A stretch of 63,557 nt of DNA, filler included, from Bilabrum cf. latius (lineage: Eukaryota), in NCBI GenBank assembly GCA_965178125.1. It is 3 parts of 3 records of this genome, joined end to end, with 100 filler letters (N's around TTAATTAATTAA, not from the genome) between each part and the next. Parts side by side here need not be neighbours in the genome. Positions count along the whole stretch, not along the records: positions 1 to 26,702 come from CBCXTV010000031.1; 2 more parts are not named here. One strand, written 5' to 3'. Below the pieces are notes generated by a model. It did no database searches. It was not told the DNA's origin and was given only the letters and a program-made list of their open reading frames with translations. The position numbers and the translations under genes are program-made. Positions within the stretch are counted from its first letter, which is position 1. Each line of letters starts with the position of its first letter. Positions 620-28,748 of the stretch are shown here, piece by piece.

Positions 620-868
620 GGGAAACGGATGCACAACGGTATGCCACCCATGTCCTCGAGGAATCCACCAAGACGTTGTGGCCCGAGGTAGTGCGATTTT
701 CGGGAGAAGGATTCTTAGTACCTTATAGGGTACCCCCCAGGATCGCACTACGTGGGTTTGGGGGGTTGGTTTCCTTTCCTCTTGTTTTCGTGTGCACTCT
801 TCTGCGACCGCCCCCCCCGGGGAACGGATGCACAACGGTATGCCACCCATGTCCTCGAGAGATCCACC
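620..868 (+). repeat. ~50-bp direct repeat (620-669 and 820-868) bracketing the left origin-like hairpin
   Basis: AACGGATGCACAACGGTATGCCACCCATGTCCTCGAG..ATCCACC occurs on both sides of 688-820. Confidence 0.9.
688..820 (+). promoter_or_regulatory. Putative rolling-circle origin stem-loop, left copy
   Basis: GTAGTGCGAT (688-697) pairs with ATCGCACTAC (742-751). The loop contains TCTTAGTAC (713-721). The segment is a diverged ~130-bp direct repeat of 12133-12260. Confidence 0.6.
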
Positions 869-1072: not shown

Positions 1073-2137
1073 TCACGGCACGCTCTCCGGTCCGCCCGGT
1101 GCGAACTCAGAGTCGTCGTCTGTCGAAACGTGGTCGCTGTGGAAGATGTTGCTCTGGCCGTCTGAGGACACGGCATCCTGCCAGTATCGACGCAACTGCT
1201 CCGCCACGTCCATGGCCGCATGGGAGCTCAGCGGGATCTGCTCGAAGAGAGCGTTACTGTCGTGCACTGCAAACAGCCTGGCCGCGACGCGATCTTGATG
1301 GCAAATTTCGAGTGTGGCGCGGATCCGGAAACAGTAGCCGTCCGGAAAGTTGCCCTGCATCAACTGGTCCTCCACCGCACACTGCGTGCACCAAATAGAC
1401 CGCTCGGTACGTCGTATGTAGCCGGGCCACAGGGAATGCAGCAACGAGTACTGAGCCCGACGCAAGCTCTTCGGGTTGAAGCTGTCCGCCTGCTTGACCC
1501 GACTGCAGGCCTGGCACTTGAGGTTGGTGATCACGGCCGACTGCTCCCCAGCCAAATACCAGATCGTACGCGAGCGCAGCCTACGAGGAATCCACTGGCC
1601 CGACTTCCGGGGCACGACCATCGCCAAGAGCTTCGACTGCGGCGCGTCGATCTGCACCCTCGACCCGCAATCGCTGAGCGTAATGGCGTCGTCGAACACC
1701 CACGTGCCGCCCCAAGCATGACGCCTGCGCTGCTGCCGGGAGCTCGGGTTCGGTACCTCGCGAGGCCTGTCGGAAGGGGGGTCCGTCGGCTGCGGTGGTG
1801 TCGGATACCAGGAGAGAGCGGTCCACGGATTGATGCACGTGGACGTTGCCGCCTCGCGCGTCGCCGGAGTGGCTGAGCTGTCTGGTCGACGAAACGGTGG
1901 CGCCCACGCCGTGCAGGCCGCCACCTGCGCGGGCACATCGGGCAAGAATGCGCCTGCAGGTTCACGTGGCCGAGGTCGGGGAAGCTTCGTCGGGGTCAGG
2001 GATCCCATCGAGGAAGCCGCGTTCGCCGCTGGGATGGTCGTGCTCGAGGTTGACGAAGTCGCGTTCGCCCCTGACATGGTCGTGGTCGAGGTCACGGCAT
2101 GGCCGCCGAGGGGTGAGCGCGATCGCGGGGGGTCCAT
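1073..2137 (-). CDS. Hypothetical CxxC...CxxC zinc-finger protein (Stc1-like spacing), 354 aa
   Basis: ATG start, low-complexity N-terminus, then LKCQACSRVKQADSFNPKSL...IWCTQC. It resembles the fingers in 8060-8911 and 27182-27969. Confidence 0.6.
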   Translation of the reverse strand: MDPPRSRSPLGGHAVTSTTTMSGANATSSTSSTTIPAANAASSMGSLTPTKLPRPRPREPAGAFLPDVPAQVAACTAWAPPFRRPDSSATPATREAATSTCINPWTALSWYPTPPQPTDPPSDRPREVPNPSSRQQRRRHAWGGTWVFDDAITLSDCGSRVQIDAPQSKLLAMVVPRKSGQWIPRRLRSRTIWYLAGEQSAVITNLKCQACSRVKQADSFNPKSLRRAQYSLLHSLWPGYIRRTERSIWCTQCAVEDQLMQGNFPDGYCFRIRATLEICHQDRVAARLFAVHDSNALFEQIPLSSHAAMDVAEQLRRYWQDAVSSDGQSNIFHSDHVSTDDDSEFAPGGPESVP

Positions 2138-3729
2138 CCGTTTAGTCTGCGGCCACGAGGCACGCGGCGAGCGTTACCACCGTGGACGCCTCCGTCGACC
2201 CCGTGTCCGGACGCGACTGGGGCCCTGTTGATGAGCGCATCGTGCGGGAGAGGCTGCTGCGGACTGCTGATGAAGCGGAGCTGGTCGACAGACGGAGCAT
2301 CGCTGGAGATGTCCTCCATGTCACACTCAAACAAGCGCCGTAGGGTCGAATGCAAGCGGCGCCTGCCGCTGGTAATGCCTGTCATATCGAAAGCGCCTTG
2401 CCACGAGCCAGACGAGAGCACTCTCTTCGTGCACTCAGCGACAACCCTGAGATGGCAAGAGACATCGACATGACCCGCTTCATGACGCGAGCGCTCCTGC
2501 ATCCACGTCTCCCGAAGGTCGCGCTTAAGAAGCTGAAAGACGAGAACGTCCAACGGCTGAAGCAAGAAGGTGAGTCGACCAGGAATAAACACGAGATCCA
2601 TGCCAAGGCCGTGTGCGAAGTTCACAATCTCAGTGGAAATGTGTTGGGGCGCGCAGTCAAGTATCACTATTGGATAGATCTCATGCTGAATGTCCATCCA
2701 AGAAGCGAAAAGCCGACGCAGAATGTCGAACATGAGGGACTGCGTCACCCACGAGCTCTCTCGGGCCCAGACTTCCATTCCGTCCACCATTTGGTTCGAC
2801 GCCCCACGCATCAAGCGCTTGCTCAGCCGCGTGTGCTTCCCGATGAGTATACGCGGGAGTCGTCGCTGGATTTCCGGGCAGTCGCTAATGAAACCCAGAA
2901 AGGTGTACGATCCTCGATTGCTATTCGAGGCGAGGCGCTCCGTGCGCGAACCAAGCGAAGCGGGCTCCGTTCCTGACCTCGGTGCGATGTACCCGCGCAT
3001 TCCCGGAAAGGCAAAGGGCACGCTGGACTCATCGAAGTTCACAAAGACGAGGCGGCGGTTGCGGGGCACTCGCGCTTCTGCGAATTCAATCCACTGATAG
3101 AAGACACGACACGCGAGTCTGACGTAATCGAGTGTTACCGGGGGCTGCTTCTTCAATCGGCCATGCCGAAGCCGCCAACGACGACGGAAGCGCAGGAGCC
3201 ACTGCCGTCGAGCCGAGTCCTTCCCCGCGCGAACGCCCATCCTCGCAAGCATGGCGAAAACCATGCTCCCAGTTGGAGCACACCCACGCTGCTCGTTCAC
3301 ATGGTCGATCCAAGCAACGACAGAAGCCTCGGCGAGAAAGGTCTCCGCGCGTGCCACGGACTCTCGATGACATGAGCGAAGAGGATTTCGCTGCCACGCC
3401 TCAACTGGGCGCCTCATGGTGAGCGCGACCTCCTCATCGACCTGCCTTTGAAACTCCTCCTGCGAAGCCGTCCGCGTGGAAACCTGTCGACTCTGCAACT
3501 GACGAGAGACATAGGTTCGAAGAGCTGCCTCGCCACCTCCGGGGTGATGACGAATAACCTCAGCGACCTGTGCCTCCATGGCGCGCAACCACGGATGGCG
3601 CAGCCCATTGCGCGCCCGTTGTCTCGCGTCTCTGAGACACTTCAGCTCCTTACTGATCCGTGCGAGCTGATCCGGCACCGAAGCAGAGGACATCATGACG
3701 CGTGAGGAACCGGGCAGAAGATCGCTCAC
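2092..3729 (-). CDS. pogo/Tigger-like (DDE_1 family) transposase, ~535 aa; likely ATG at 3693
   Basis: Catalytic triad motifs VNFDES, VILDCAPQH and FIPGRLTFLLQPLDVLVF. CENP-B/Tc5-type HTH signature WLLRFRRRW. Uninterrupted ORF. Confidence 0.9.
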   Translation of the reverse strand: MSDLLPGSSRVMMSSASVPDQLARISKELKCLRDARQRARNGLRHPWLRAMEAQVAEVIRHHPGGGEAALRTYVSRQLQSRQVSTRTASQEEFQRQVDEEVALTMRRPVEAWQRNPLRSCHRESVARAETFLAEASVVAWIDHVNEQRGCAPTGSMVFAMLARMGVRAGKDSARRQWLLRFRRRWRLRHGRLKKQPPVTLDYVRLACRVFYQWIEFAEARVPRNRRLVFVNFDESSVPFAFPGMRGYIAPRSGTEPASLGSRTERLASNSNRGSYTFLGFISDCPEIQRRLPRILIGKHTRLSKRLMRGASNQMVDGMEVWARESSWVTQSLMFDILRRLFASWMDIQHEIYPIVILDCAPQHISTEIVNFAHGLGMDLVFIPGRLTFLLQPLDVLVFQLLKRDLRETWMQERSRHEAGHVDVSCHLRVVAECTKRVLSSGSWQGAFDMTGITSGRRRLHSTLRRLFECDMEDISSDAPSVDQLRFISSPQQPLPHDALINRAPVASGHGVDGGVHGGNARRVPRGRRLNGWTPRDRAHPSAAMP

Positions 3730-8059: not shown

Positions 8060-8911
8060 TCAACGCGGAGACCACGAGTCGTCATCGCTCCAAGCCTCGC
8101 GTCCAGACAGACGAACAAGCCCGCGCCATGCCTCATCGTAAAGATCCCTCTCGAAAACCCTGTGCTGCTTCATCGTTCCCAATGTCAGAATTTTCTCCGC
8201 AGTACAACGCTGCCCCTTCCGCTCCCCGGTCTCTACAATGAGATCCAACTGCATGCGAAGTGTTCCCGAGATCTTCTTCTTGTTCGCCGCGTTCATAATC
8301 GACGTCTTTGGCGCCGCGTCGCGCGCCTTCTCGCGACAAGCACGACAAGAAATCGCACCCCTGCCGCACGGAGAATCATCGGCATAAAGCGTGCGCTGCA
8401 CGCGACGTACGAGACGATCACGCATACGATGATTCAGGTCCGCCATGACACGATTGCAGCCGCAGGAAGAGCATACAAACTCCGCGAGGTTGAAAGCCTT
8501 AGAGTCCGACCAAACGACGCACTGTGTGTCCTGGGGTGCCTCACTGCCGAGCGCTGTTATGAGCACCGCCGGATGGGCCGGCGACTTAGGAAGAAGTCGC
8601 GAACCGGGAGGAAACACGCGAGGCCGCTTGAAACCGACATCTCCGGCAAGAGGCGCAAGCATCATCTCCACCTCGCCCTCCGGGGCGTGCTCGGAGGTCG
8701 ACGCGGCAACCACGGCCACATACGGTGCATCGGCGATACCGACGTAGGCCATCAAGCAACGCACCCACCTTCGGCCCGCGAGCGTACACGGCGCGCCTAC
8801 CGGAAGCAGAGGCTTCTGAGACCAAGAAATGTCTCGTCGGCGCGCGACGCGGCGACGTAAAAGCAAACGACCCGCCGGGTCCCAACCGCGGCACTGCGGA
8901 GACACACACAC
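8060..8911 (-). CDS. Conserved element zinc-finger protein (ortholog of 27182-27969); start uncertain
   Basis: VCSSCG...RLVRRVQR...SCRAC...PKTSIM...GTLRMQLDL...DLYDEA aligns by eye with SCEMCG...RVRRRVRR...RCRDC...PKNMVL...GAVKMTLEL...DLWAAA. Confidence 0.7.
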   Translation of the reverse strand: MCVSPQCRGWDPAGRLLLRRRVARRRDISWSQKPLLPVGAPCTLAGRRWVRCLMAYVGIADAPYVAVVAASTSEHAPEGEVEMMLAPLAGDVGFKRPRVFPPGSRLLPKSPAHPAVLITALGSEAPQDTQCVVWSDSKAFNLAEFVCSSCGCNRVMADLNHRMRDRLVRRVQRTLYADDSPCGRGAISCRACREKARDAAPKTSIMNAANKKKISGTLRMQLDLIVETGERKGQRCTAEKILTLGTMKQHRVFERDLYDEAWRGLVRLSGREAWSDDDSWSPR

Positions 8912-9156: not shown

Positions 9157-11442
9157 TCAGCTCTTCTGCACATCCGTGAGAGACAACAAGTCCTCGTCGA
9201 AGTAGAGCCGATCTTTCACCTCCACTTTCGTACAGTTGTTGTCAAGCCACTCGCGGTCCACCGACTCCGTCACGTCAGAGCCCCACGAATTCGTGCAGAT
9301 GATCAGGGCGATACCGTGGAGCCACACAGAGTATGCGAGGCTGTTCGTCTTGCTCTGGCCGAGCAGGGAGGGGTCAAGGCCAGCCTGAAAGACCTGTTTG
9401 TTGTTGACGACCCACAGGGCATTTGCCTCGTCGAACACAATGGCCACATGCCGACTTCGATCGAAGCCACGGAGCGGAGGTTCCACACTGCCCTGACAGT
9501 TCACAACAAGAGTCCTTTCGCTCCCGAAGAGATTCCGCGCGTACACTGTCTTCCCGAACCGGGAGTCCCCCACCAAGACAAGGAACTTGAAGCGCATGTG
9601 CGCGAACCACTCCTGACGATAGCTCTCGCGCCACTTCTCGACTTCGGGCACCACCTTAAAGGGGCGGAGCTTCGTCACTACGTGCACCGCGGCCTGCGCG
9701 CACACCTCTCTCCTCTCCGCGGCATTCTGTATGTGGAAGTCGATGGCGCGCACTAAGTTCTCGGCGTCCCGACACCGATACGCCACGAGTTCCCTTCTCG
9801 CGACGTCCGGATCCATTTTGAAGCGTGCGAACAACGCGTGCACGAACTTACCATTGACGACGAAATCGCGTCCGGCTCGGTAGTTCGTGGCGCAAAGCAG
9901 CGCACCGACTTTGGGAGCTTGACAATAATAGTGTAACTCCGACGCGCCACGTTCCTGCGCTTTCGCTGACCGCCCGGAGCCGTACACGACATTCGGCCTG
10001 CTGCCGGCCCACATGAAATCCTCCGCCACGCGACAACGATGCGACTTCTCGGAATCCGTCATGCATACGTGGAAGTGCACCAAGTTTGCGGCGTGCTTGC
10101 GGTGCAGGGAGAGCTCCATTTTCATGGACAGCTGAGGCCACATCATCCGCCGCGCGATGTCCTGCGCCCATGCCTTGAAGGTGGCCCAAAGCTCCACATA
10201 GAACGGAGACGCGAGAACCAATCGCCTCAGGACGCCCCTTGCCACGGATGCCGACATGATGTCGCGCACAGGCTCCTTTTCGACACCCCAGCGACCGTGA
10301 AAGGTAAGCATCACGGCCCTTCCCCGCCTCGTGTTCTTGTCGGACGCAGGCACAATCTCGCCCACGGGCACTGAATGCGATCCCGGATTCCTCACAACTT
10401 CGTCCCGCTGCCGCGCAAGCTCCGGGAAGAGCTCCTCGAAACGAAGCTGGCAAGGAGTGTCCTCCGCCCCCGCAGCCCAGTCTTTCAAGATGCACATGCG
10501 GTCACCGGGTACATTGCGAAGCGCCTCCCTGATGAGGCACCGCTTCCGCTGGTGTGACACCGACGCCGGAAACGCCAACTTGAAATCGTCAGGGAAAACC
10601 CGCAGGAGACGATAGATGACACTATCAATAGGACGAGTCGAAGGCCTTCCAGTCGAGCGCTGCGGCCCAGACGCTCCGGCCGCGGCACGAGCCGCGGGCG
10701 GAGGTCCGAGATGAGCCGCAAGACTCGATGCTGCATCGCCCTCAGCAGGGTCGCACTTCTGCCGAAGACGCCGCCTCTTCACGGGGGGCACGAAATCGGG
10801 AAGCATGAGCATCTGCGGTCGCCCCCTCGCATCGGGCGCAGAATCCTCGATGGGCAGAACCCCACGGTAACCTTGACTACTCCGCAGAAGCTGCACCGGC
10901 AAAAGTACTTCCTCTGACGGGGGTTCCAAATTGATGACACCCGCGGCGAGCGCTTCGGAGGCAGCAACGCGGCCAGGAATGTCGCCCTCAACGCTGAGGC
11001 CCTCATAAAGGACTCGTTCACCCACTACGCCGATCTGCCACTGACCGCTCGACTTGCCGTGGGACAACAAGCAGGCTCCCGGATCGCCCTCGCATTCTGC
11101 CTCGCATGCGACCTCGCATGAGGCCTCAATCATGTCGAGACTGGCGTCGAAGTCGTTCTCCGCATCGTCAAAGCCAAAACTCGGGACAGCGGCCGCGCGC
11201 GCTGCAGCCACCGAATTGGAGACACCGAGGCCACACGAGCACGTTGGGGACGCCTCGGACACCCCTAACAAAGCAGAGGTCGCCGTCGTGGACGCTTCTG
11301 ACTCCTGGCTTGTGGGGAGGCCATCGCACGGCACGCAGCTCGCGGAAACCCACGCGGGATCCCAGGAGCAGGATGCGACTCGGGACTTCAGCGACTCGGC
11401 AACAGACAAACTCATCGTTTCGCCCTTGAACGGAGCCGACAT
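9157..11442 (-). CDS. rep: CRESS/geminivirus-like replication initiator protein (HUH endonuclease + SF3 helicase), 761 aa
   Basis: Motifs in canonical order: motif I VMLTFH (~10300), HUH motif II LVHFHVCM (~10061-10084), motif III HYYCQAPK (~9910-9935), Walker A LVGDSRFGKT (geminivirus-like GDSRTGKT), Walker B IVFDE and motif C IICTN. NLS-like PPVKRRRLRQK. Confidence 0.9.
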   Translation of the reverse strand: MSAPFKGETMSLSVAESLKSRVASCSWDPAWVSASCVPCDGLPTSQESEASTTATSALLGVSEASPTCSCGLGVSNSVAAARAAAVPSFGFDDAENDFDASLDMIEASCEVACEAECEGDPGACLLSHGKSSGQWQIGVVGERVLYEGLSVEGDIPGRVAASEALAAGVINLEPPSEEVLLPVQLLRSSQGYRGVLPIEDSAPDARGRPQMLMLPDFVPPVKRRRLRQKCDPAEGDAASSLAAHLGPPPAARAAAGASGPQRSTGRPSTRPIDSVIYRLLRVFPDDFKLAFPASVSHQRKRCLIREALRNVPGDRMCILKDWAAGAEDTPCQLRFEELFPELARQRDEVVRNPGSHSVPVGEIVPASDKNTRRGRAVMLTFHGRWGVEKEPVRDIMSASVARGVLRRLVLASPFYVELWATFKAWAQDIARRMMWPQLSMKMELSLHRKHAANLVHFHVCMTDSEKSHRCRVAEDFMWAGSRPNVVYGSGRSAKAQERGASELHYYCQAPKVGALLCATNYRAGRDFVVNGKFVHALFARFKMDPDVARRELVAYRCRDAENLVRAIDFHIQNAAERREVCAQAAVHVVTKLRPFKVVPEVEKWRESYRQEWFAHMRFKFLVLVGDSRFGKTVYARNLFGSERTLVVNCQGSVEPPLRGFDRSRHVAIVFDEANALWVVNNKQVFQAGLDPSLLGQSKTNSLAYSVWLHGIALIICTNSWGSDVTESVDREWLDNNCTKVEVKDRLYFDEDLLSLTDVQKS

Positions 11443-11950: not shown

Positions 11951-12260
11951 GGTAGTGCTCGGTAGTGCTCGTTTCGCGCGGTTTTTACATAAAAAAATGC
12001 CGTTTTTCTGGAAAAAAAAGCTCAAAAACCCCCAGTTTTTGACACGTAGTGCTCCGATTTTCCTGTAAAATGCAGGATTTTTTCACGGTAGTGCTCCCCT
12101 TTTTTCCGCTTTCCCCGACGCCAGGGACCGATGTAGTGCGATTTTCGGGGGAAGGATTCTTAGTACCTTAGAGGGTACCCCCGAGGGTCGCACTACGTGG
12201 GTTTGGGGGGTCTCCTTTCCTCTTATTCTCGCGTGCACTTTTCTGCGACTGCCCCCCGGA
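11951..12260 (+). promoter_or_regulatory. Putative rolling-circle origin: iterons plus long stem-loop upstream of rep
   Basis: (G)GTAGTGCTC at 11951, 11961, 12046 and 12087. A 21-bp stem with G-T wobbles pairs 12131-12151 with 12178-12198. The loop contains TCTTAGTAC (12158-12166). Confidence 0.7.
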
Positions 12261-12618: not shown

Positions 12619-13323
12619 TCACAAGGTCGACTTCGCCTGGCTCGTTGAGGAGTTGGCGGAGCTGCGTGCTGCGATCTCTTCTTTTTGCACCAACTGCAAG
12701 ATCTTCCTGTCTAGCACGATTTGGGCGAGCTCGTCGTCTGTGAGTTTTTTGGCGTTCTTCATGGTGCGCCTTTTCTGCCGGATGGTTTTGCGGATGGCCT
12801 TCGTTTTAGCCCGCTGCTCGAGCTTGAGAGCCTTGCGCTCCTCGGTAAGGCGTGTGATCGCTGCCGTCCACTTGTCGACGAACAAGGGTGTGTCGCCAGG
12901 TTCGTCCGTCTTGGCGGTCTTCTCTAGCGCTTCCATGTGTCCGTCTTTCGGGCAGGGCTCCTCGAAGAACTGCTGCGCATGATCTGGTTTCTGTGATCCT
13001 GCCTCCGTCGCTTCGGGTGGCGCCGCTGCATCCGCATCTCTAGGGGAGTCGAGCCGCATTGCGTCCTCCGGTTCTGCGTCGCTCGCCATGGGGTGTGCAG
13101 TGAGTTTGCTTCCTGAGTGGGCTGCTTTTCTGTGCGAAGCTTCTGGCAGTTGCTGTATTCCTGGGCCCAAAAAAAACTCAGCGAGAAGTGCTTTCACATG
13201 GAGGTGGTGCGGTAAGAAGTGCGCGGGTCCTTGTAGACTGAAGTGCTTCCTGCGCAGAATGGGAGAAGTTCCACTGCGGGGTCTCTCAGACGCGTCTGCA
13301 TGAGGAGGTGGGGGGTGCGTCAT
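12619..13323 (-). CDS. Small basic coiled-coil protein; likely ATG at 13089
   Basis: AITRLTEERKALKLEQRAKTKAIRKTIRQKRRTMKNAKKLTDDELAQIVLDRK, similar to RRHKRLMRRATRLDLEDLLEIAAAKK in Element 2. Confidence 0.65.
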   Translation of the reverse strand: MTHPPPPHADASERPRSGTSPILRRKHFSLQGPAHFLPHHLHVKALLAEFFLGPGIQQLPEASHRKAAHSGSKLTAHPMASDAEPEDAMRLDSPRDADAAAPPEATEAGSQKPDHAQQFFEEPCPKDGHMEALEKTAKTDEPGDTPLFVDKWTAAITRLTEERKALKLEQRAKTKAIRKTIRQKRRTMKNAKKLTDDELAQIVLDRKILQLVQKEEIAARSSANSSTSQAKSTL

Positions 13324-13964: not shown

Positions 13965-16697
13965 TCAGGGCTCGTGCTTTACGCCGGGTGCCGGGGTCAG
14001 GCGCGCTCTCTTCGAAGGCTGTGCCTCAGTCCTGTTGGTGGAGGGCGACCTGGAATAGGATGAGGACGATCTGGAGCAGGATCTCGTGTCCTTGAGGCTT
14101 ACGCTCCTCGCGAGCTTCAACGAATTCCCGTGGAAGGTCCGCGGAAGGCTCACGTACTCCTCCTCGTCCACGTCATACGGCTCACTGCCCTGCTGCTGCC
14201 GCCACTGGTTGATCACAAGCTTGATGAACGTTTTGCCCCAGCTCCATTCGGAATGACTCTGTGCCTGCTCGGTGAGCCACTTGTTGTATGCGATGTTCAC
14301 CGTTTTGATGCCCTGCACCGCGGTGTAGAGATGCCCCGCGTTGAAGCGGTAACCTCGGTCGTCGGCATCCTGAAGGTTGTACCGGAGCCGGGCGTCCGCA
14401 TGGCCGATGTCGTCCGAGGGGATGTGCTCGAAGACCTTTTGGCACTGGCGGCTCACGAACGGGTCGACGATGCACTGCGTGCTTTCCGCGTACTTGATCA
14501 TGTGCCACATGGCTTCCTCGGCAAACCATTTGGAATAACTCAAGAGGTTATAGGTCTTGTCCTTGGCCCTTGAGTAGTTGTTCGCAATGTCCCGCAGTGC
14601 GGGCGAGTCCAGCACGGCGCGCCTCGTCTGGCACAGCGGGCCGTTCTTGAGGAGCTGCTTCCTGTTGCTCTTGTGCGGAGCGTACAGAGTTCGGATGACG
14701 TCTGGGATCACGGTGTCCGTGGCAGTCCTGCCCTTAAACATGAAGTGGTTCCAGGCCACGGTCCAGCTCATGATGGGATAGTGCACTTGCATCGGAGGTA
14801 TGAGCGTGAGGAGGCCCACGGTTTTCGCCAAGGATGCTCCCCAAGTAATCCAATCATCACTCGGGTTCTTCTCGTCGTGCCTCCTTTTGGGGATCATTTT
14901 CGGGAGGAGGAACGTTGGCGTTATGATGCGCTCCCCGAACTGCTTCGTGAGGTGCTTCATCATGCCCACCCAGACCTGTCCCAGCGGTTTGGTTGTCATG
15001 CGGATCACGACGAGGCGCGAGCTGCTGTCCCCCTTTAGGATGTCTTCCAACTCGTTCTGCAGCGCTTGCTTTGCCTCAAGGATGTAGTACTGGATGCTGT
15101 TGTCCTTCCCGTCGTTCATCCACTCCTGCTGCTCCTCTTGGCATCTCCCCTCGAGGCTATGCGCCGCCAAGTCCCTGTCGTCGCAGAGGACAAGCGCGTG
15201 GGTTGAGGGTGGCCACTCCAGCCATGAGGGCAGCTCGGCCCCCGGCATCTCCGTGTGGAGTTTATCGATCCACTTCTGCTTGACTTGGATCCATCGAGCG
15301 GTCTGCCATTTCAAGGGAGGCAGGGTGTTCATCTTGGGCCTCTTCATGGCTACCATGTCGAGCATTCTGTCGAGGGTGGGGATGCACATCATCGGCTGCA
15401 CCACGTGGATGCGGATGTCTCCGTACCTCAGGAAGTACGAATACGACCCGCCGCGTTTGTCCTGGAGGAGGTGGACGAACGTGTTGGTTTCGCCGGCGTG
15501 CTCGTGAACACCGCACAAGTCTTCGTAGGAGATGGGCACGCGCTCTGTTTTTTCCCAGACGAGGACAACCCCCCAACTCAGGGCCGCGCACACGGACATC
15601 ACGACGGACAATGTGTTTAATCGCTCGCCAAGAGTCCAGTCGTCACTCGGGTCGATCATTATGTACGGTTTCATACTGTGCCCTGCATCCGCACTTCGTC
15701 GTCCCGAGCCCCCCCACTCCGTGTCCATGCTCTCGGGAGTCGATGCGAGGACCGGGCTGGCTGCCAGCACAGATGTCATGCGGAGGCAATCTTCCCACTT
15801 CCATACCGGCCCTTGGAACGTGTCGAAGAGGCGGCGCCAGACGCAGCGTTCGAAGCTTCGGTTCGGGATCCGCATCTTCAGGAGCGCCTTCCTCCCCTCC
15901 GGGCTGATGAGATACCACTTTAGGCCCATGCCGACGTGGTAGGGGACCACAAATGTGTTGTCTACCCAGTGCGCCGGATAGGTCCGCACGTCCAAGAGGC
16001 GCTCGCAATTGTGGATGGAGGTGGAGTTTTCGCGCTGGAGGCTGACCATTCTCGGTGCTTCTGACCCCGCTAACATGGCCATCTGCGTCACCTTGGGGTT
16101 TTTCGCGATGGCGTGAAGAACTACGAGTAGCCGATCCACGCATGCTTCGCGAGGTTCGATATCATCTTCGACAACCATGAGCCATTCCGTCGGCGTGTGG
16201 TTCTCAGCCCACAGCCATGCGTTTCGATGGGATTGGATCGCCCCAACAGTGGCCGGATTGTATTTGCTCCAGTCCGTTATCTTGCCGGAGAAGATATCCA
16301 AGAGGGCCTGGTCTTTGACGATGTCGCGTCCATCTGGGTCCCTGTCGGTCTGCGGAAACACTGGATTGGGGAGCCGAAGGACCGCTCCCATGTGCTCGTG
16401 GAGTTCTCGCGCCCCTTTTTTTTGTCGCCACTCCTCGAAGCGGGACTCTTCCCTGCAGATCAGCAGACATGTCATCTTCCCGAGGTCCTGGCGATGGTGT
16501 CCGAATTGCGCCTGGAAGCCCGACATCTCCAGAGACGGGAAATGGCATGCGCTGTGTGTCCAGCGGCGATCTTGCACTTCTGCTCCCGAAACTCGCGAAT
16601 GCAGGATCCGGGAACATGAGCCTTGAAGGCGGCGGATTTTTGGATGGGGACACCCGCGTCCTCTCTTCGCGAGCTTCGTCCTGATCCGATGCCCCAA
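13965..16697 (-). CDS. Multidomain glycosyltransferase: GT25-like domain, followed by a possible fucosyltransferase-like domain; ~850-910 aa
   Basis: Long open frame with strong codon bias. GAIQSHRNAW...WLMVVEDDI resembles the GT25 pattern GCxxSHxxxW...LILEDD. TLGERLNTL...GVVLVWE resembles the GLGNRL motif of GT-B fucosyltransferases. Confidence 0.65.
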   Translation of the reverse strand: MGHRIRTKLAKRGRGCPHPKIRRLQGSCSRILHSRVSGAEVQDRRWTHSACHFPSLEMSGFQAQFGHHRQDLGKMTCLLICREESRFEEWRQKKGARELHEHMGAVLRLPNPVFPQTDRDPDGRDIVKDQALLDIFSGKITDWSKYNPATVGAIQSHRNAWLWAENHTPTEWLMVVEDDIEPREACVDRLLVVLHAIAKNPKVTQMAMLAGSEAPRMVSLQRENSTSIHNCERLLDVRTYPAHWVDNTFVVPYHVGMGLKWYLISPEGRKALLKMRIPNRSFERCVWRRLFDTFQGPVWKWEDCLRMTSVLAASPVLASTPESMDTEWGGSGRRSADAGHSMKPYIMIDPSDDWTLGERLNTLSVVMSVCAALSWGVVLVWEKTERVPISYEDLCGVHEHAGETNTFVHLLQDKRGGSYSYFLRYGDIRIHVVQPMMCIPTLDRMLDMVAMKRPKMNTLPPLKWQTARWIQVKQKWIDKLHTEMPGAELPSWLEWPPSTHALVLCDDRDLAAHSLEGRCQEEQQEWMNDGKDNSIQYYILEAKQALQNELEDILKGDSSSRLVVIRMTTKPLGQVWVGMMKHLTKQFGERIITPTFLLPKMIPKRRHDEKNPSDDWITWGASLAKTVGLLTLIPPMQVHYPIMSWTVAWNHFMFKGRTATDTVIPDVIRTLYAPHKSNRKQLLKNGPLCQTRRAVLDSPALRDIANNYSRAKDKTYNLLSYSKWFAEEAMWHMIKYAESTQCIVDPFVSRQCQKVFEHIPSDDIGHADARLRYNLQDADDRGYRFNAGHLYTAVQGIKTVNIAYNKWLTEQAQSHSEWSWGKTFIKLVINQWRQQQGSEPYDVDEEEYVSLPRTFHGNSLKLARSVSLKDTRSCSRSSSSYSRSPSTNRTEAQPSKRARLTPAPGVKHEP

Positions 16698-19497: not shown

Positions 19498-19513
19498 GCC
19501 ACTCTAGGGCCTC

Positions 19514-20420
19514 CGGGAGCCCTCTTGGGGCCCCCAAACAGCAAAACAAACCCCGGGGCCCGAAACTGTGTCGCCGCAACTTAAATTCCTTGTGTGGATC
19601 GGCCATTTTTGGCCAAATCTGGGGGGGTCCCCTTCCGGGCCCCCCCAAAACGCTCCAAAAAAAAAACACCACAACGTGGCGTTTTGCGTCTTTTTAGGGC
19701 GGTTTAGGGGCTCTAAAATCCACTACAACGTGCGTTTTGCGTCTCTTTGGGGCGATTTAGGGGCTCTAAAATCCACCACAACGTGGCGTTTTGCGTCTTT
19801 TTTGGGCGATTTAGGGGCTCTAAAATCCACCACAACGTGGCGTTTTGCGTCGTTTGGGGGCTGCCTGGGGCCCATTTTTTCCACCACAACCTCGCGTTTT
19901 GCCTTTTTGGGGCCGGGAGCCCTCTCGGGGCCCCCAAACCGCAAAAACAAACCGGGGCCCGAACTGTGTCGCCGCAACTTAAAGTCCTTGTGTGGATCGG
20001 CCATTTTTGGCCAAATCCTGGGGGGGGTCCCCTTCCGAGCCCCCGAAAACGCTCAAAGAAAAAACACCACAACGTGGCGTTTTGCGTCTTCTTTTTTGGG
20101 CGATTTAGGGGCTCTAAAATCCACTACAACGTGGCGTTTTGCGTCTTTTTTGGCGATTTAGGGGCTCTAAAATCCACCACCACGTGGCGTTTTGCGTCCT
20201 TTTTTGGGCGATTTAGGGGCTCTAAATCCACCACAACGTGGCGTTTTGCGTCGTTTGGGGGCTCCTTGGGGCCCATTTTTTCCACCACAACCTCGCGTTT
20301 TGCCCTTTTTGGGGCCGGGAGCCCTCTTGGGGGCCCCGAAACAGCCAAAAAAAGCGGGGTCCGAGCTGTGTCGCCGCAACTTAAATTCCTTGTGCGGATC
20401 GGCCATTTTTGGCGAAATCC
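19514..20420. repeat. Higher-order satellite: ~400-bp units containing ~51-bp TTTAGGG-bearing subrepeats
   Basis: CGGGAGCCCTC starts units at ~19514, ~19914 and ~20317. The subrepeat is GGCGATTTAGGGGCTCTAAAATCCACCACAACGTGGCGTTTTGCGTC. Confidence 0.9.
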
Positions 20421-23400
20421 CCGCATCTGCTCCTCACGCGCGGAACGTGTTTCGGTACGCAAAAAGCGGTCACATGGGAGGCCCGGAAAGCGTCCGGAAA
20501 ACGGTTCAGAAATAAGTACCGTCGTTTTCCGGGTCACCTTTTTCGGTCTCGAAATGGGAATCGGATTTGGGACAGGAATTGAAGCGGAGAACGGACCCCA
20601 AGGTGTTACCTCTTGCCTCCATACGATGCTAGGATCTCCAGGTTTCTCAGTTTTAGGCAGCACTCGAAGGGGAAGCTTCCGACGGCGCGCCTATGACATG
20701 CTGCCACCCATCACCGTGGTCATCTGGAGGACTCCGCACCATTCGGAAAACGGCTCGCCCGCCGTGAGTGAACCAGCGATCGCCGTGTGCATCAGTAGGA
20801 CCCCCGCACCATTCGGAAAACGGCTCGCCCGCCGTAAGTGAAATGGCGTCCCGAAGGACCCGTGCTCCTTTTGAAAAACGGCTCGCCCGCCGTGTGTCCG
20901 CCGTGAGTGAACCAGCGATCGCCGTGTGCATCAGTAGGACCCCCGCACCATTCGGAAAACGGCTCGCCCGCCGTAAGTGAAATGGCGTCCCGAAGGACCC
21001 GTGCTCCTTTTGAAAAACGGCTCGCCCGCCGTGTGTTCCCGAGATCCTCCAGCCACGCCACCAGTCAATGTTCTCGCTCGCCGTTACGTCATGGAGCCCC
21101 ACGAAGTCGTGCAGATGATCAGGGCGATACCGTGAGCATCCTCCTTCTCCGTCTTCTTGCCGCCGTCGTACAGCCTGGCCGCGACACGATCTTGATGCCA
21201 AAACTCGAGGTTTCGCCGGCGTGCTCGTGAACACCGCACAAGTCTTTGACGATGCCCTGCATCAACTGGTCCTGCACCGCACACTGCATGCACGATGGCA
21301 TCGCGGAGATGAATTTCTCCGCATTCCGGAGAAGCTCCATGGCCCGGTTGATGTCATCCAAGGCCTCGTCACGCGAAGGACTCTGACGCACGGCGTTGCT
21401 GCAGGAGGCGGCGCCTCCTGCAGGAGGCTCGTCGCGTGCGGGAGCACGAGCGTCGTTGTCGCCGTCACCGGTATTCGCGCCAGCTTTTGGCACCCAACGC
21501 TTCGCTTCACCCGCAGAGGAACGGACATCATGGAGACTCCAGCCACGCGCAACCAGGCACTTCGCGCACCAGTCCTCAGGGAAGAAATAGCGCAGGTTCT
21601 CCTTCTTCCGGCGGTTCTGGGGAAATCGGTACGCCGGATACTCGTTTTTGCAGTTCTTGCACCACACCCACCACGGCGTCGCGTTGTCGAACTTGTCGCA
21701 ACACACCCGGCAAACTGGTTGGATCCAGTCCTTCCACTTCTTGAAGTACGCCGACCGGGGCTTGCAGCACTGGCACGCGTTGCAAGTCCATGTCGCCTCC
21801 TCCGCCGGCTCCGGCGCGACCTGCCGCGGCACGTACGTCTCCCCCCATGACGACTTCGCAGGGGTCTCCCATAGATCCCAGCTATCAGCGCCAGAGACCG
21901 CCCCGGCAGTGTGCGCAAGATTCACACGCTGCGATGACAATGCCTCTGCCACGCCGCCACCCGCCTTCCAAGCGGCTGCGTCGGTCCATACGTCGTCATT
22001 ACCTCCGGGCACCACAGCACGTCCACCGCCGCGAGCATCCTCCTCCTCCGTCTTCTTGCCGCCGTCGTCTTCGGCGTCCTCCTTCGGCGCTGCCTTGCCG
22101 CTCTCCTCTCCGAGCATCCCCGTGGACGCCGCCTCCGCGCCGCCGCTCTCGATGTGGGAGCCGCCCGAATCATCGACGCTTGCCGCCGCGCCGGCGTGCT
22201 CCGCCGGGGCGTCGACCTCGCGCGCCAACATGCCGCCCTCGTTTCCCATATCACCGGCGCCTCGACGCCCACGAAGATTGCGGCCGTCTCCCAAGGAAAC
22301 AGCAATGCTCTCGGACGGTTTCTCCTCAGACATCATCGGCAAAGAGACTCGGAGAATGCCGTTCCCGCAGAGTGCGCTGCTGACTGCCGAAGCCGAAAGA
22401 GGACCCGCGGAGAAGGAATCTCGCACATGCTCCCAGGAAAAGCAACTCCCCGCCCATTCCGAATGCAAGAACGGACTCCCGCCCTTTCCGAGATCGAGAG
22501 CGCATCGCGGGCGCATTTCCCGACTCGCGATCGGCCTCGGAAACCGAGATCTCCCGGGCACCTTTCCCGACTCGCAGCCGGTCTCAGAGACGACCACGAA
22601 TCGGCACGACAAGTGCGCCCGATTTCGTCCCCCGAAAAAGGACACAACTAGGACCCCGCGGATCTCCGCCGGAAACTCGTTTTTGCAATTCTTGCACCTC
22701 ACCCACCACGGCGTCGCGTTGTCGAACTTGTCGCAACACACCCGGCAAACTGGTTGGATCCAGTCCTTCCACTTCTTGAAGTACTCTGACCGGGGCTTAG
22801 GCCCTGGCACGCGTTGCAAGTCCATGTCGCCTCCTCCGCCGGCTCCGGCGCGACCTGCCACGGCACGTACGGCTCCCCCCATGACGACTTCGCAGGCGTC
22901 TTCCATGAACCCCAGGTTCCGACATCCTTCCCGTCTGCCACGCCGCCACCCGCCTTCCAAGCGGCTGCGTCTGACCATACGTCGTACACGACATTCGGCC
23001 TGCTGCCGGCCCAAATGAAATCCTCCGCCACGCGACAACGATGCGACCTCTCGGAGTCCGTCATGCATACGTGGAAGTGCACCAGGTTTCCGGCGTGCTT
23101 GCGGTGCAGGGAGAGCTCCATTTTCGTCCCGCTGCCGCGCAAGGTCTGGGAAGAGCGTCCGCATGGCCGACATCATCCGGAGCAGGGCGTCCGCATGCTC
23201 GACATCATCCGGGGGATGTGCTCGAAGACCTTTTGGAACTCGCGGCTCACGAACGGATTGACGATGCTCTGCGTGCTTTCCGGGGGGATGTGCTCGAAGA
23301 CCTTCTGGAACTCGCGGCTCACGAACGGATTGACGACGCTCTGCGTGCTTTCCGGGGGGATGTGCTCGAAGACCTTTTGGAACTCGCGGCTCACGAACGG

Positions 23401-24560
23401 ATTGACGACGCTCTGCGTGCTTTCCGCGTACTTGATCATGTGCCTCATGGCTGGGCCGCCCGCAACATCGACGCTTGCCGCCGCGCCGGCGTGCTCCGCC
23501 GGGGCGTCGACCTCGCGCGCCAACATGCCGCCCTCGTTTCCCATATTACCGGCGCCTTGACGCCCACGAAGATTGCGGCCGTCTCCCAAGGAAACAGCAA
23601 TGCTCTCGGACGGTTTCTCCTCAGACATCATCGGCAAAGAGACTCGGAGAATGCCGTTCCCGCCTGCTTGACCCAACTGCAGGCCTGGCACTTGAGGTTG
23701 GTGATCACGGCCGACTGCTCCCCACCCAAATACCAGACCGTACGCGAGCGCAGCCTATGAGGAATCCACTGGCCCGACTTCCGGGGCACGACCATCGCCA
23801 AGAGCTTCGACTGCGGCGCGTCGATCTGCAACCTCGACCCGCAATCGCTGAGCGTAATGGCGTCGTCGAAGATCCACGTGCCGCCCCAAGCATGCCGCCT
23901 GCGCTGCTGCCGGGAGCTCGGGTTCGGTACCTAAAAGCCGTACACGACATTCGGCCTGCTGCCGGCCCAAATGAAATCCTCCGCCACGCGACAACGATGC
24001 GACCTCTCGGAGTCCGTCATGCATACGTGGAAGTGCACCAGGTTTCCGGCGTGCTTGCGGTGCAGGGAGAGCTCCATTTTCGTCCCGCTGCCGCGCAAGG
24101 TCTGGGAAGAGCGTCCGCATGGCCGACATCATCCGGAGCAGGGCGTCCGCATGCTCGACATCATCCGGGGGATGTGCTCGAAGACCTTTTGGAACTCGCG
24201 GCTCACGAACGGATTGACGATGCTCTGCGTGCTTTCCGGGGGATGTGCTCGAAGACCTTTTGGAACTCGCGGCTCACGAACGGATTGACGATGCTCTGCG
24301 TGCTTTCCGGGGGGATGTGCTCGAAGACCTTTTGGAACTCGCGGCTCACGAACGGATTGACGACGCTCTGCGTGCTTTCCGCGTACTTGATCATGTGCCT
24401 CATGGCTGGGCCGCCCGCAACATCGACGCTTGCCGCCGCGCCGGCGTGCTCCGCCGGGGCGTCGACCTCGGAAAGTGTTTCGGTACGCAAAAAGCGGTCA
24501 CATGGGAGGCCCGGAAAGCATGGCATCACCCTTGCCGTCCCCATCACTGCGTCGTGGGAT
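20421..24560 (-). mobile_element. Scrambled mosaic derivative of Element 1
   Basis: Concatenated pieces matching 7340-7434, 19420-19497, 9290-9315, 5930-7150, 9982-10120, 14395-14510 and 1488-1760, among others. 72-bp tandem arrays at 23211-23425 and 24167-24380. Confidence 0.85.
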
Positions 24561-25504
24561 GCTGCTCAAGATAACTCGGCGTCTGTTTAGTCGAGGGCTG
24601 TCTTGACTAGGAGTTTGGCGGTGAAATCCAGGAGTTCCGTCTGCATCGTCAGGCTCTTGCCTTTCTGTACCATATCAAGAGGAGAGGGAAGACATGCAAA
24701 ACCGACCCGCGACTAATTCTATCCTACGGCCAAGCCACCTGCGGCGTCCGCGCGACTGGGCGTGCACGAGAACCGGCGCACTGCACTGCTTGAAATGCCA
24801 CGCTCCCGAGCGAAGGGAGTACGTTGTTCTGCAGAACGCTCTAGTCTTGGTGCGCTTGCAGCGGCACTTATCGGTGCGCCGCGGGGAACGGCTCGCGTGG
24901 GATTCGGAGGCGTACCCGGCCCACGACGGGAGGAGTTCCCCAGTTACGTCTGGAGTGATTGGGGGACAAGGTGGGCATCAAGTCGGCGCCTCCTGAGCGT
25001 ATCACAGAGGATGACGAACCGCCCGCCCCGCTTCGATCCCGACCTCGAAGTGCACTCGAAATCAAGGCGGAACGCTGGAAATCCGCCCCGAAACCCTCCA
25101 TGTTTGTTGACAAGGACCCAGGCTGCGCTCCGACAAGCTGACAAACTTCGTCAGCCTCCGAAGGGTCTTCATTAAATATTCAACGCTTCCGGGGTCAATG
25201 AGGTAATGCACTACCAAAGAGCAGCTGGGCCGTGTGTCGTCCGAGATGACAAAGATCGTGGGCATCATCGATCCAGAGGGCGTCAAAGGCACGGACGACG
25301 CGGGCGACATTGACCCCGACGGGCTGGAGGTCCTGGACCGCGTCTGGACGCCCCATCCGGAAGTATTCCTAAGCGCTCCCGACGGACGAGACCTTCTCTG
25401 TCTGAAATCAGGCACCCAACCCTTCCGCACAAGGTGAAGAGAGAACGCCGACGGACAATATCCTCTCTTTTGCACATCGGGCATCCAACCCCTCCGCACA
25501 GGTG

Positions 25505-25730
25505 AGCAAGCGACGAGTTCCCTTCTCGCGACGTCCGGATCCATTTTGAAGCGTTGGAACAATTCGTGCACGAACTTACCATTGCCGACGAAATCCCGTA
25601 CGGCTCGGTAGTTGGTGTTGCAAAGCAGCGCACCAACTTTGGGCATCTGACAATAATGGAGCTCGAAGGCGCGGCGCTCCTGGGCTTTCGCTGCCCAACC
25701 GGAGCCGTACACGACATTCGGCCTGCTGTC
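25505..25730 (-). pseudogene. rep: Diverged rep fragment (motif III region)
   Basis: SRPNVVYGSG...ELHYCQMPKVGALLCNTNYR...FKMDPDVARRELVA matches 9780-10000, with substitutions and loss of one Tyr codon. Confidence 0.85.
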
Positions 25731-26264
25731 CGGCTCGCACGGTTTGTGGCGCAAAGAGGACGAATGCTCCAACCCGCCGCGCCTGGTAATGGTATGGACG
25801 AGCTGGGCGTCAGTGATCGTTCCTTTTTCCCGGACGCAACGGACCCGATGAAATTTTCGCGCGCTGAGCAGACCCCAAATTTACGATGAAGAAGCCCAAA
25901 TCCTGCGTCCATGAAGGCCTTGCGAGGCCGCCTGCTATTGGCAGTCGACGCTCCGGGATCCACTGCGCAATGCAGTTTTGCAGAGCGATGCAGTATGCGC
26001 GGGAAGACGGCAAAATGGATCCGTATCTTTGGGAAGAGGTCTGTGCATCGCACAGCTGCCGCACGGAGAGCTGCTTCCGTTCCACGGCTGGTGAGGGCCC
26101 GATGCTGCTCTACTCATGCCCCACGGCCACACACTAAGAGGAACGGATTGTGTCAGGATCCCGCCGCAGCATGGGTACGCGGATCTGCCTCCATAGGGAC
26201 GGACGGGAGGAGCTGCCGGCGGAGGGCGGGCGGGGGTCCGGCCAAGCCAAGCGGCCAGGTACTT

Positions 26265-26410
26265 CACGCTCTGCCCTATGGCGCTGGGTTCTGTGAGGCG
26301 GGGCCTATCTGTGATCCTCGGCTCTGTGAAGGTGCGAAGCGCTATTCACGATTCGACTTCGCCTTACTCCTGGATGAGGCGGCGGAGCTGCGTGCTGGGA
26401 TCTCTTCCTG
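26265..26410 (-). pseudogene. Diverged fragment of the 3' end and flank of the coiled-coil gene
   Basis: Colinear similarity to 12537-12680 (ACGCTCTGCCCT...TCGACTTCGCCT...GGCGGAGCTGCGTGCTG). Confidence 0.7.
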
Positions 26411-26702
26411 TGGCGTCCGAGCGCGATGGCGAGTGCACGCTTGGCCGTCATAGAGAAAGGCACGGCGAAGTACCACATCTTCGCCACCCACCACATTTCG
26501 CCAAGCACCACCTCGTTGGCAGGCTTCGGGAACGCGAAACGCACAAGTTCTCTTGGTTTCCGCGTTGAGTGTGCCTGACCACGAGCGTCCTTGGCGCCGT
26601 CAGCGTGCCTGCTCTCTGCGTTGATTCGGACGCGTACCCGGCTCGCGTGGGCATGGACCTCCCCAATCCGGCAGAACCGTGAGCTCCTGGCATCCCACCT
26701 CT

Positions 26703-26802: not shown

Positions 26803-27181
26803 TGCACACCCTCCACCATGCTCTGAAACATAGACTCTCTCTGCCGCGGAAACCTCGTGTGTGCATCAGGAAACTTATTTTGTGACGATGAACTTGTAAC
26901 CATGCGCATAGAAAAAGAAGTGATATGAACGGATGTTGGGGACATGCTGCCAAAAATGCCTCGGATCCGACTGCCTGCCGCAGGCCCTTGCCATGCAACA
27001 CCCAGATTCCGACACACTGGAAGCGGGCCAGGGAGACCAAGCTTTTTCACCGGACAGGCGCCACGAGTCCCCAACCCCGCACTGTGGCGCGCCCGAATTG
27101 AATGGGCGAGTTTCCCGCGCCGCGGGGCCACGACACCCCGGTGGGCTCGGCCACACCCGGGATGTTGACGGTGAGCTACGC

Positions 27182-27969
27182 TCACTGGCCCGCAAGATCC
27201 GCCTCATCCGAATCCGACTCCTCGGAGGAAGTTCCGAATGGGCCGGGCAGCTCCATGATCCAGGGGGCGGCAGCAGCCCAAAGATCCGCATCCATGGTCT
27301 TCAAACTTTGCCCCGCGCCGAGATCGCGCGACGTCTCATAGCACACCCTGTCGCCGCCCTCGTAAGGCGTCTCCAGCTCGAGCGTCATCTTCACGGCTCC
27401 TCGGAGATGCCCGGACTGTATGGCTTCGAGAACCATATTTTTCGGCGACTTGCTCTTCATGATGCAATCACGGCATCGAGCACCTCCTTTTTTCCCCCGC
27501 GGCCTCGGGTCCTCGGATGCGATGGCGCGGCGGACGCGGCGACGCACACGACTCAAGGCGGGATTGTTGAAAGCCGCGATGGACTTCTGGACGCCGCACA
27601 TCTCGCAGCTGACGTCCGAAAGCGCCCAATCGTCAAAAAGGGACTCATACCAGGAATCCTCTGATCCGTGCTTTTGCGGCCTGCGGACGAGCCGGCATGC
27701 GGGATGCAGAGAGGTCGCTGCCAAGTCCCAAACGACCCTGCCATCGCTGCCTGCAGGATGCAGGCCGGCGCCCGGACCGGCCCGGGCCCGGGCCCGGGCC
27801 CGGGCCCCGGGCCCGGGCCCCGGGCCCCGGGCCCCGGCCCGGCCCGGGCCCGGCCCCCGGCCCCGGCCCCGGGAACGGCCGGCCTGGCCCGGCCCCGGAC
27901 CTGGCCCGGGCGCAGCCCGGGGGCATTCGGCTGGCCCTTCTGCGAACCTTCTCCGCTGCCCGAAGCCAT
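27182..27969 (-). CDS. Conserved element zinc-finger protein; predicted join(27969-27948, 27750-27182)
   Basis: Homologous to 8060-8911. An AAG|GT...CAG|G intron at 27751-27947, which contains the GGGCCC tract, joins the ATG at 27969 in frame. Confidence 0.65.
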
Positions 27970-28606
27970 GGCAGCCTCGAGGACACGCAGGTCAGTGACT
28001 GGCGGCAGCGGTGGGCCCGGCCACTTCCGCTCAGTGCTGCTCGCAAATGCGCTTCGGACACAAGGACAATCGGGAAAATGCATGTACCGGGGCATCCCTG
28101 GCGCACTGAAGCACTGAATGCCGGCTTGGAAACACTGTGACCCGGCAAGGGGTTTTGCTGTGGCATCCTGTGAACCTCATCCCAGACTGGTGCGGGGCGG
28201 CTTTTGCTCCTAGTTCCGGTCCCCATTTCCGGGGCCGGAAAACGGCCCCAAAACAAGCACGAAAAAAACCGAAACTGACTGTGCGGATCGCTCTTTTTCG
28301 GCACGTTTTCTGGGCCGGAAAACGGCCCCGGAAACGGGGACCCGACTTCCAAGCATCTCGGGCGTCGGATCCAAGCCAAATTTCGTCTCGCACAGGAGGC
28401 GGTTTTCATCACCGGGCGCCACCACCGGCTACAACCTCGCCCACTCACTGAGCCGCCCACACACAGCAACAGCGAACCGGGACGAGAGAGATGAGAGACG
28501 AGAAAGAGAGCGACAGAAACAAGGACAGATGAGAGAAGAGCGAAGAGACGAAGAGAGAGGAGGAAAGAGATCGGAGAGACAAGAGGCGAGGCAGGAGAGA
28601 CTGGAC

Positions 28607-28748
28607 GCCCGCCCACCCGCCCGCCCGCCCGCCCGCCCCGCCCGCCCGCCCGCCCGCCCGCCCGCCCGCCCGCCCGCCCGCCCGCCCGCCCGCCCGCCCG
28701 CCCGCCCGCCCGCCCGCCCGCCCGCCCGCCCGCCCGCCCGCCCGCCCG
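28607..28748. repeat. (CCCG)n microsatellite; second copy at 43267-43408
   Basis: Direct reading. It is preceded by a GA-rich tract at ~28480-28600. Confidence 0.95.

Follow-up and report, generated by a model that had tools for sequence, protein, structure and literature searches.

The replication-associated proteins (Reps) of the geminivirus/genomovirus group are known to carry YxxK as motif III, TRAKATTRC and TAWWDWRN have been described as origin sequences (PMC5399927), and in Geminiviridae, Genomoviridae and pCRESS9 an asparagine occupies the place of the arginine finger (PMC8780604). Among eukaryotic mobile DNAs with a Rep-class HUH nuclease, Replitrons are without a helicase, and Helitrons combine a Y2 nuclease with a superfamily 1B (SF1B) helicase (PMC10288648). 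Here we describe a 761-amino acid (aa) Rep and the multicopy element that carries it, found in a stretch of 63,557 nucleotides (the window) consisting of three contigs joined by N spacers, from an assembly labelled Bilabrum cf. latius (GCA_965178125.1; 48.6 Mb, 111 contigs). With a probability that we put at roughly 0.55, we read the element as a multicopy, capsid-less, rolling-circle nuclear plasmid of dinoflagellates, able to integrate by means of its own transposase, with units of 27 kb in the window family and about 14-25 kb in its siblings. This reading is built on sequence, predicted fold, repeat structure, gene linkage and motif conservation, from which we infer circularity, nicking, integration, expression and host.

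The Rep is encoded by one uninterrupted frame (start codon as predicted). The initial annotation had already placed the rolling-circle motifs (VMLTF at aa 377-381, HFH at aa 456-458 and HYYCQAPK at aa 504-511) and the superfamily 3 (SF3) helicase motifs (GDSRFGKT at aa 625-632, IVFDE at aa 668-672 and IICTN at aa 714-718) in this single frame, to which we add that it lies on the minus strand. Searches of the protein against Pfam, PHROGs, PDB sequences and PLSDB gave no match. According to structural models, it is an HUH-nuclease/SF3-helicase Rep. AlphaFold2 modelled aa 365-761 from a 140-sequence alignment with a pLDDT of 94.9, and the nuclease domain alone with a pLDDT of 96.8. Queried with the two-domain model, Foldseek gave AAV2 Rep68 and the Vientovirus Rep as the best solved structures, E values down to 3e-15 against viral Reps, and CRESS (viruses with circular, single-stranded DNA that encodes a Rep) Reps at the head of the named viral models, led by one from a genomovirus (E 1.3e-14). 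Generic AAA+ folds took up the VIA listing for the whole model, and PCV2 Rep (Z 10.4, rmsd 2.7, 121 aligned residues) and SV40 T tied with them. For the nuclease domain, the top five VIA rows were all CRESS Rep nucleases (two Vientovirus entries, a nanovirus, a circovirus and a geminivirus), with Z scores of 7.0-8.0, which are middling, rmsd of 3.1-3.6 and 93-113 aligned residues, and the ranking was consistent; Foldseek with this domain alone returned nothing at E≤0.001, the top row being TYLCV Rep at E 1.4e-3. The protein therefore combines an HUH fold, with motifs I and II and a single catalytic tyrosine, with a C-terminal SF3 helicase containing Walker A, Walker B and motif C, as expected of a CRESS-type Rep. 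Neither of the outcomes that would have spoken against the initial annotation, a missing HUH fold or a helicase grouping with non-Rep ATPases, was seen in the fold models.

A 12-sequence profile, searched against 1.84 billion representatives, showed that this Rep belongs to a large family, with 895 clusters (at 50% identity) at E≤1e-30, 1,952 at 1e-10 and 2,938 at 1e-3. Nine residues are invariant across 140 aligned members (Y506, K511, K542, R617, K631, E672, N718, W732 and N736), and E443, H456 and H458 are present in 139 of the 140 (one gap for H456 and H458). Since all 140 have both Y506 and K511, motif III is YxxxxK throughout the family; the departure from YxxK that had been called atypical is thus real, but it is no oddity of one protein. 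The reported lack of an arginine finger past motif C also holds, as there is no conserved arginine there, and N736 is found in 140/140 relatives. The sequence before motif I has a median length of 200 aa and reaches at least 150 aa in 85 of 139 members, making the large size of the protein a family trait. The N-terminal extension of about 370 aa and its basic patch (aa 219-229), described as resembling a nuclear localisation signal, both stood up to scrutiny; its description as low-complexity needs qualifying, since the bias in its composition is mild (3.4-3.8 bits per 50 aa, compared to 3.7-4.0 in the core) and aa 120-344 match the relatives P0012 and P0015 with E values of about 1e-11 to 1e-12. 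A helical stretch seen in P0007, and in the region before motif I of many members, has a weak HMG-box match (E 0.0047, in one of 12 members) and may be a DNA-binding accessory domain, judging from its sequence.

In quick helicase trees, the family forms its own long branch relative to gemini/genomo-type and HLQG-type Reps from IMG/VR (SH-aLRT 98-99), a placement that calls for caution over long-branch effects and was made without the CRESSV6, pCRESS9 and Pyropia (Porphyra) pulchra Reps. The helicase scored a median of 20 bits with gemini/genomo-type Reps (n=106) versus 0.25 with the HLQG type (32 of 34 scored), a gap that is partly circular because the first set was picked by its similar Walker A. 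The initial view of an oversized geminivirus Rep inserted in a host genome is not borne out: the long N-terminus and YxxxxK are family traits, Gemini_AL1 in Pfam matched none of 12 members, the family branches separately, and contigs C1-C43 gave no match in a Rep search. What survives is that the Rep lineage is distinct, shows HUH and SF3 folds in models and structure comparisons, is intact in many copies, and has an affinity to the gemini/genomo side suggested by ESM Atlas neighbours and by the invariant asparagine at the likely arginine-finger place (PMC8780604). IMG/VR, scanned with two alignments, yielded no relative of the Rep, nor did a first metagenome scan; a later one found 103 loci.

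The Rep gene is part of a repeated unit. We counted at least 105 Rep matches in the assembly, all on contigs C44-C108, at least 44 of them full-length at 99-100% identity; these counts are a floor, 104 of 195 candidates having been scored. Units are assembled head to tail, with a period of 27.2 kb in C44; as many as about 13 stand in tandem on a contig, diverging by 0.4-1.5%. The 27-kb unit or its rearrangements make up 176 kb of C44, 70 kb of C48, 40 kb of C47, C63 and the first and third window contigs, where unmatched pieces are shorter than 450 bp, bar one 2.6-kb insertion in C63. Across about 350 kb of unit contigs, no junction to unrelated DNA was found apart from this internal insertion. 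Further small contigs harbour five sibling Rep families, 25-31% identical, whose units repeat every 13.7, 14.7, 15.0, about 21 and about 25 kb; among the codon differences between Rep copies of family D, 25 are synonymous and 18 non-synonymous.

All six Rep families, and the second window contig, also encode homologues of the window transposase in an all-against-all comparison of units. This protein matches Pfam DDE_1 (E 1.4e-11) and, weakly, HTH_Tnp_Tc5 (E 0.04), and its DD35D triad is invariant in 6/6 aligned sequences, as in pogo/Tc5 DDE_1 transposases; the assembly has 82 transposase matches, all on C44-C108. The core of the sibling units consists of the pogo-like DD35D transposase, a coiled-coil protein, a hairpin with TAATATT in its loop, and Rep. 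The coiled-coil-like gene comes before the origin in five siblings, and the window copy matches their profile weakly (E 7e-5). This linkage extends to independent samples. Among the best 80 of the 103 metagenome loci (53 clusters at 85% identity), all five with at least 6 kb of upstream sequence (four distinct, two being near-identical) have transposase, coiled-coil gene and Rep in this order on one strand, and two others have the transposase 7-10 kb downstream of Rep. The transposase is present in 7/11 loci of at least 8 kb, the remaining four having less than 1.2 kb upstream and ending at or soon after a fourth recurrent gene, g4. Each adjacency of the cycle origin-Rep-g4-transposase-coiled-coil gene-origin is present in some contig. 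None of the four recurrent families is capsid-like by sequence comparison.

We observed g4 in metagenome loci (L131:2142-3443, L099:6187-7803, L119:9295-10569) and in assembly families B, C and F, often in pieces suggestive of exons and with an acidic motif reminiscent of GT-A glycosyltransferases. Searches of Pfam and PDB gave no match for it, nor did it show homology to the 853-aa open reading frame (ORF) of the window, so a glycosyltransferase label for g4 would rest on the acidic motif.

The stretch at 12120-12210, upstream of Rep, folds at -23.8 kcal/mol (z -6.45), and 0/200 shuffles were as good. The hairpin within it, proposed by the initial annotation for a nicking assay, sits in the coiled-coil gene/Rep interval, where siblings have TAATATT hairpins, with a variant loop. 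In all five sibling families, each unit has TTAATATT a single time, on the Rep strand and within a hairpin (z -2.5 to -8.7) that lies 2.1-2.6 kb ahead of the Rep stop, in contigs where the word is expected 0.01-0.06 times. The full TAATATTAC is found in the hairpin loop of one sibling family, and contig C59, a close sibling variant, has a one-letter change in the TTAATATT word. In the dereplicated metagenome loci, 8/14 TAATATT matches fall in an upstream zone, set post hoc, that represents 14% of bases (p 2e-4), and several other loci have one-letter variants within hairpins. The window unit has a second, nearly identical hairpin on the same strand, at a spacing of 11.45 kb, so that the two flank Rep and the transposase; this hairpin, the linked transposase and the multicopy unit had all been overlooked. 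Repeats of the hairpin stem would be the putative Rep binding sites, to judge by their sequence (Table 1).

A motif of roughly TTCCCCCATA-TGT-GTGCGATT lies near the origin in families B, C and F and in the second window contig (30794-30886), and is absent from the window's own Rep family. A CA/TG-repeat hairpin was also seen at 8900-8975, 190 bp downstream of the Rep stop, beside TAGTATT (about 8966-8972, minus strand); we set this TAGTATT aside as an origin because siblings show nothing alike downstream of Rep.

Table 1. Features of the window (positions along the whole stretch).
Feature	Position	Strand	Remarks
Origin-like hairpin 2	688..755	minus	near copy of hairpin 1
pogo/Tc5-like transposase	2092..3696	minus	534 aa; D222-D347-D383 (DD35D) intact
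230-aa ORF	8060..8752	minus	downstream of Rep; distant homologue in W2 unit (29% over 140 aa, E 4e-6)
Rep	9157..11442	minus	761 aa; N-terminal extension (aa 1 to ~370), HUH nuclease, helical linker, SF3 helicase
Asn736	9235-9237	minus	invariant; likely arginine-finger place, from spacing
SF3 helicase motifs	9235..9570	minus	Walker A 9547-9570, Walker B 9427-9441, motif C 9289-9303
HUH nuclease domain	9808..10335	minus	aa 370-545; motif I 10300-10314, HUH 10069-10077
Motif III	within 9910-9933	minus	Y506-x4-K511
sDBM/GRS-like RPNVV	9985-9999	minus	in HUH nuclease domain
Iteron-like repeats of hairpin stem	11951..12096	plus	GGTAGTGCTC at 11951, 11961, 12087; GTAGTGC at 12046
Origin-like hairpin 1	12131..12198	minus	~0.7 kb upstream of Rep
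Candidate nick nonamer TAAGAATCC	12162-12154	minus	in hairpin 1; suggested by position
Alternative candidate nick site TAAGGTAC	12170-12163	minus	in hairpin 1; suggested by position
Small basic coiled-coil-like protein	12619..13323	minus	just upstream of origin; positional homologue in siblings
853-aa ORF	13965..16526	minus	glycosyltransferase-like (GT25 plus GT11), lead only
Nested 54-bp and 401-bp tandem repeats	19513..20420	none	
Mosaic of rearranged fragments of the unit's own genes	20421..26702	none	Rep fragments included
Second contig	26803..53341	minus	1.8 copies of a 14,660-bp sibling unit (W2)
Third contig	53442..63557	plus	wholly 27-kb unit in rearranged order

By analogy with CRESS Reps (PMC6668415, PMC7826260, PMC5399927), Rep would bind the stem repeats and nick the hairpin loop with Tyr506, a metal being held by His456, His458 and Glu443. 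The SF3 ring would then unwind the DNA while a host polymerase extends, and Rep, still bound via Tyr506, would reseal at the next copy of the origin to give circles and head-to-tail multimers. With two origins on the same strand, a 27-kb unit could also release subcircles of 11.5 and 15.7 kb. The most likely task of the co-conserved transposase is to move the element or insert it into chromosomes from time to time, or to recombine it; moves of this kind would make it a self-replicating transposon.

The assembly mixes organisms: it contains two types of 18S, 77-83% identical, one in an array on C12 (about 942000-1030000) and the other on a small contig (C95:6099-7900), with a weaker small-subunit match at C111:31424-33097. 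Between 83 and 92% of the words of the Rep region are found in ten sequencing runs from six studies with six organism labels; one of these runs may be the source, and no RNA run was among those listed. Four runs cover 30/30 bins of window positions 1-20000 and have many letter differences in common. These data are in keeping with a high copy number of the element in a single co-cultured organism. The species-named members seen in the Rep family are proteins of Symbiodinium microadriaticum and S. necroappetens only, the rest being environmental, and they fall in the subclade of the window Rep. In addition, most siblings and metagenome loci examined have an intron-like insert, absent from the window family, at one site of the transposase, in phase 0, with a GT or GC donor (one possibly GA) and an AG|G acceptor; GC-AG and GA-AG are canonical splice sites in dinoflagellates (PMC12584245). 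The Symbiodinium members, this GT/GC-AG intron and the second 18S on C95 together point to a dinoflagellate in the sequenced culture as the most likely host. A search of the assembly for the spliced-leader motif of dinoflagellates found none, which speaks neither for nor against such a host. The transposase inserts of families B, D, E, F and W2 (just above 35631 in the latter) contain many short inverted repeats and look like hairpin elements from other parts of the units; they are possibly introner-like.

Several observations weigh against a dinoflagellate rolling-circle plasmid. We take the 18S on C95 to be dinoflagellate by the look of its sequence rather than by a database match. The window's own hairpins are without TAATATT, and the exact word occurs in only 3/16 metagenome loci with at least 1 kb of the upstream zone. 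Family E copies differ by 8 synonymous versus 18 non-synonymous changes. No terminal overlap or circular contig was found in the 80 metagenome loci; assemblies do not distinguish a circle from a long array. Contigs of sequencing runs matched to the window gave no sharp ends either, and are unable to reveal them. Among the repeats listed, none within the units were terminal inverted repeats (TIRs) or a target-site duplication, which leaves the role of the DDE protein in transposition unproven; it may serve in recombination or CENP-B-like maintenance instead. The copy in C63 is decayed (94-96% identity, frameshifted Rep) and carries an insertion (C63:24682-27310, with about 7 bp duplicated) that its gag and RNase H remnants suggest to be Copia-like, and pieces of a Symbiodinium-like cluster occur on contigs of 440-530 kb; some copies may therefore be chromosomal. 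All units might even sit head to tail in arrays on the nuclear chromosomes of a dinoflagellate, where the transposase would have inserted them and Rep would have multiplied them in situ, with free circles as mere intermediates. Such arrays would account for the long runs of little-diverged tandem units and the decayed, retroelement-bearing copy, and tandem gene arrays are common in dinoflagellates (PMC12584245), but they sit poorly with the lack of a host junction in about 350 kb, the similar unit sizes of several families and the circularly permuted gene order in independent samples, and we consider them rather unlikely.

A virus or satellite, with a large circular genome and a capsid that is too divergent to recognise or supplied by a helper virus, would explain the CRESS-type Rep and origin, several ORFs without assignment and a glycosyltransferase-like cargo that, as a lead only, resembles giant-virus genes. 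As judged by sequence, however, none of the recurrent families is capsid-like, and the two IMG/VR scans were without a relative, making this account improbable. We give marginally less credit still to a Helitron- or Replitron-like transposon mobilised by Rep itself, with the DDE gene a domesticated, CENP-B-like maintenance factor. HUH transposons do exist in eukaryotes (PMC10288648), no TIRs were found, and the unit has tandem repeats that could be a binding locus; yet the hairpin with its CRESS-type loop lies inside the unit rather than at an end, the helicase is of SF3 rather than absent or SF1B, and the DDE catalytic triad is kept in 6/6 aligned sequences.

Among other features of the window, the nested tandem repeats at 19513-20420 might, as speculation, be a binding or partition locus. 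The 853-aa ORF has no Pfam match, ESM Atlas scores of 0.88-0.89 (under the 0.9 mark) and a PHROG glucosyltransferase match (E 0.0013). The W2 unit has a transposase main exon at 34462-35631 and its Rep reduced to a C-terminal remnant at 32026-32310, and is probably non-autonomous. Its contig also encodes a 718-aa ORF (38337-40493, minus strand) with a weak match to the RapZ C-terminal domain of Pfam (E 0.004) and glycosyltransferase-like motifs, which we take to resemble GT2/GT7. Rfam found nothing in the window. Elsewhere in the assembly, C51, C54 and C64 have large ORFs in common that are unrelated to the Rep units (C51 and C54 are 85% identical in DNA) and are perhaps another multicopy element or virus.

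The Rep family and its multicopy elements of 14-27 kb are apparently undescribed: within the open-access literature consulted, which leaves room for an earlier description in subscription papers, we found neither the family nor a Rep-plus-pogo element, and the main text of a survey of viral genes in Symbiodiniaceae does not contain ssDNA, CRESS, replication-associated or geminivir (PMC9651163). The parts are known; their combination on one large replicon of a eukaryote, a CRESS-type Rep and origin together with a pogo transposase, did not turn up in that literature. A family of about 900 to 2,900 clusters (at 50% identity) that is invisible to Pfam would place a deep branch that has no capsid next to the geminiviruses and genomoviruses, with a bearing on the plasmid-versus-virus origin of their clade, and dinoflagellates, with their tandem arrays and huge genomes, would gain a native system of rolling-circle amplification and integration. 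Such elements also enter assemblies of co-cultured organisms as small contigs, where they can pass for host genes. More tentatively, and at somewhat less than even odds, they could represent a new class of self-replicating transposon/plasmid, widespread in dinoflagellates and aquatic metagenomes, in which a 14-27 kb rolling circle with a geminivirus-related Rep is integrated by a pogo-like transposase of its own; its origin hairpin may be the joined left and right ends, and its glycosyltransferase-like cargo may modify DNA or the cell surface.

How does this element compare to known systems? Polintons, casposons and Teratorn couple their own replicase with an integrase or transposase, the same logic as here, but in this case the replicase is a rolling-circle Rep and not a B-family polymerase or herpesvirus machinery, the integrase is pogo-like, and no TIRs were found. 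With pogo/Tc5 (Fot1-like, DD35D) elements and CENP-B, it has in common the DDE_1 and weak HTH_Tnp_Tc5 matches and the D-D-35-D triad, but there are no recognisable flanking TIRs and the gene is always embedded in a Rep unit in the loci examined. The plasmids of P. pulchra are under 7 kb. Together with CRESSV6, these algal plasmids resemble the element by description in having a CRESS-type HUH-SF3 Rep on the gemini/genomo side, while their account in PMC6668415, as far as drawn on here, mentions no transposase. Like Replitrons and Helitrons, the element is multicopy eukaryotic mobile DNA with a Rep-class HUH nuclease, but its SF3 helicase sets it apart from Replitrons, defined by a Rep without helicase and short terminal direct repeats, and its single invariant tyrosine and SF3 helicase from Helitrons, with their Y2 Rep and SF1B/Pif1 helicase; nor is either known to have an origin of the CRESS type inside it or a DDE enzyme as a second transposase. 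The closest likeness is to Geminiviridae, Genomoviridae and pCRESS9, with their Y1 HUH nuclease fused to an SF3 helicase, HxH motif II, GxSxxGK[TS] Walker A, sDBM-like P[HN][IV] stretch, asparagine at what is probably the arginine-finger place (PMC8780604) and TAATATT(AC) origin loop, here found in siblings and as a variant in the window. It differs from them in the YxxxxK motif III of 140/140 members where they have YxxK, a large helical insertion after motif I, the long N-terminal extension, the separate long branch without a Gemini_AL1 match, the absence of a capsid recognised by sequence and the DDE transposase that it carries, and from the two virus families also in a unit of 13.7-27.2 kb compared to a genome component of 2-3 kb. 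The element would work like a geminivirus-type replicon, yet it belongs to neither Geminiviridae nor Genomoviridae, and is neither a Replitron nor a Helitron.
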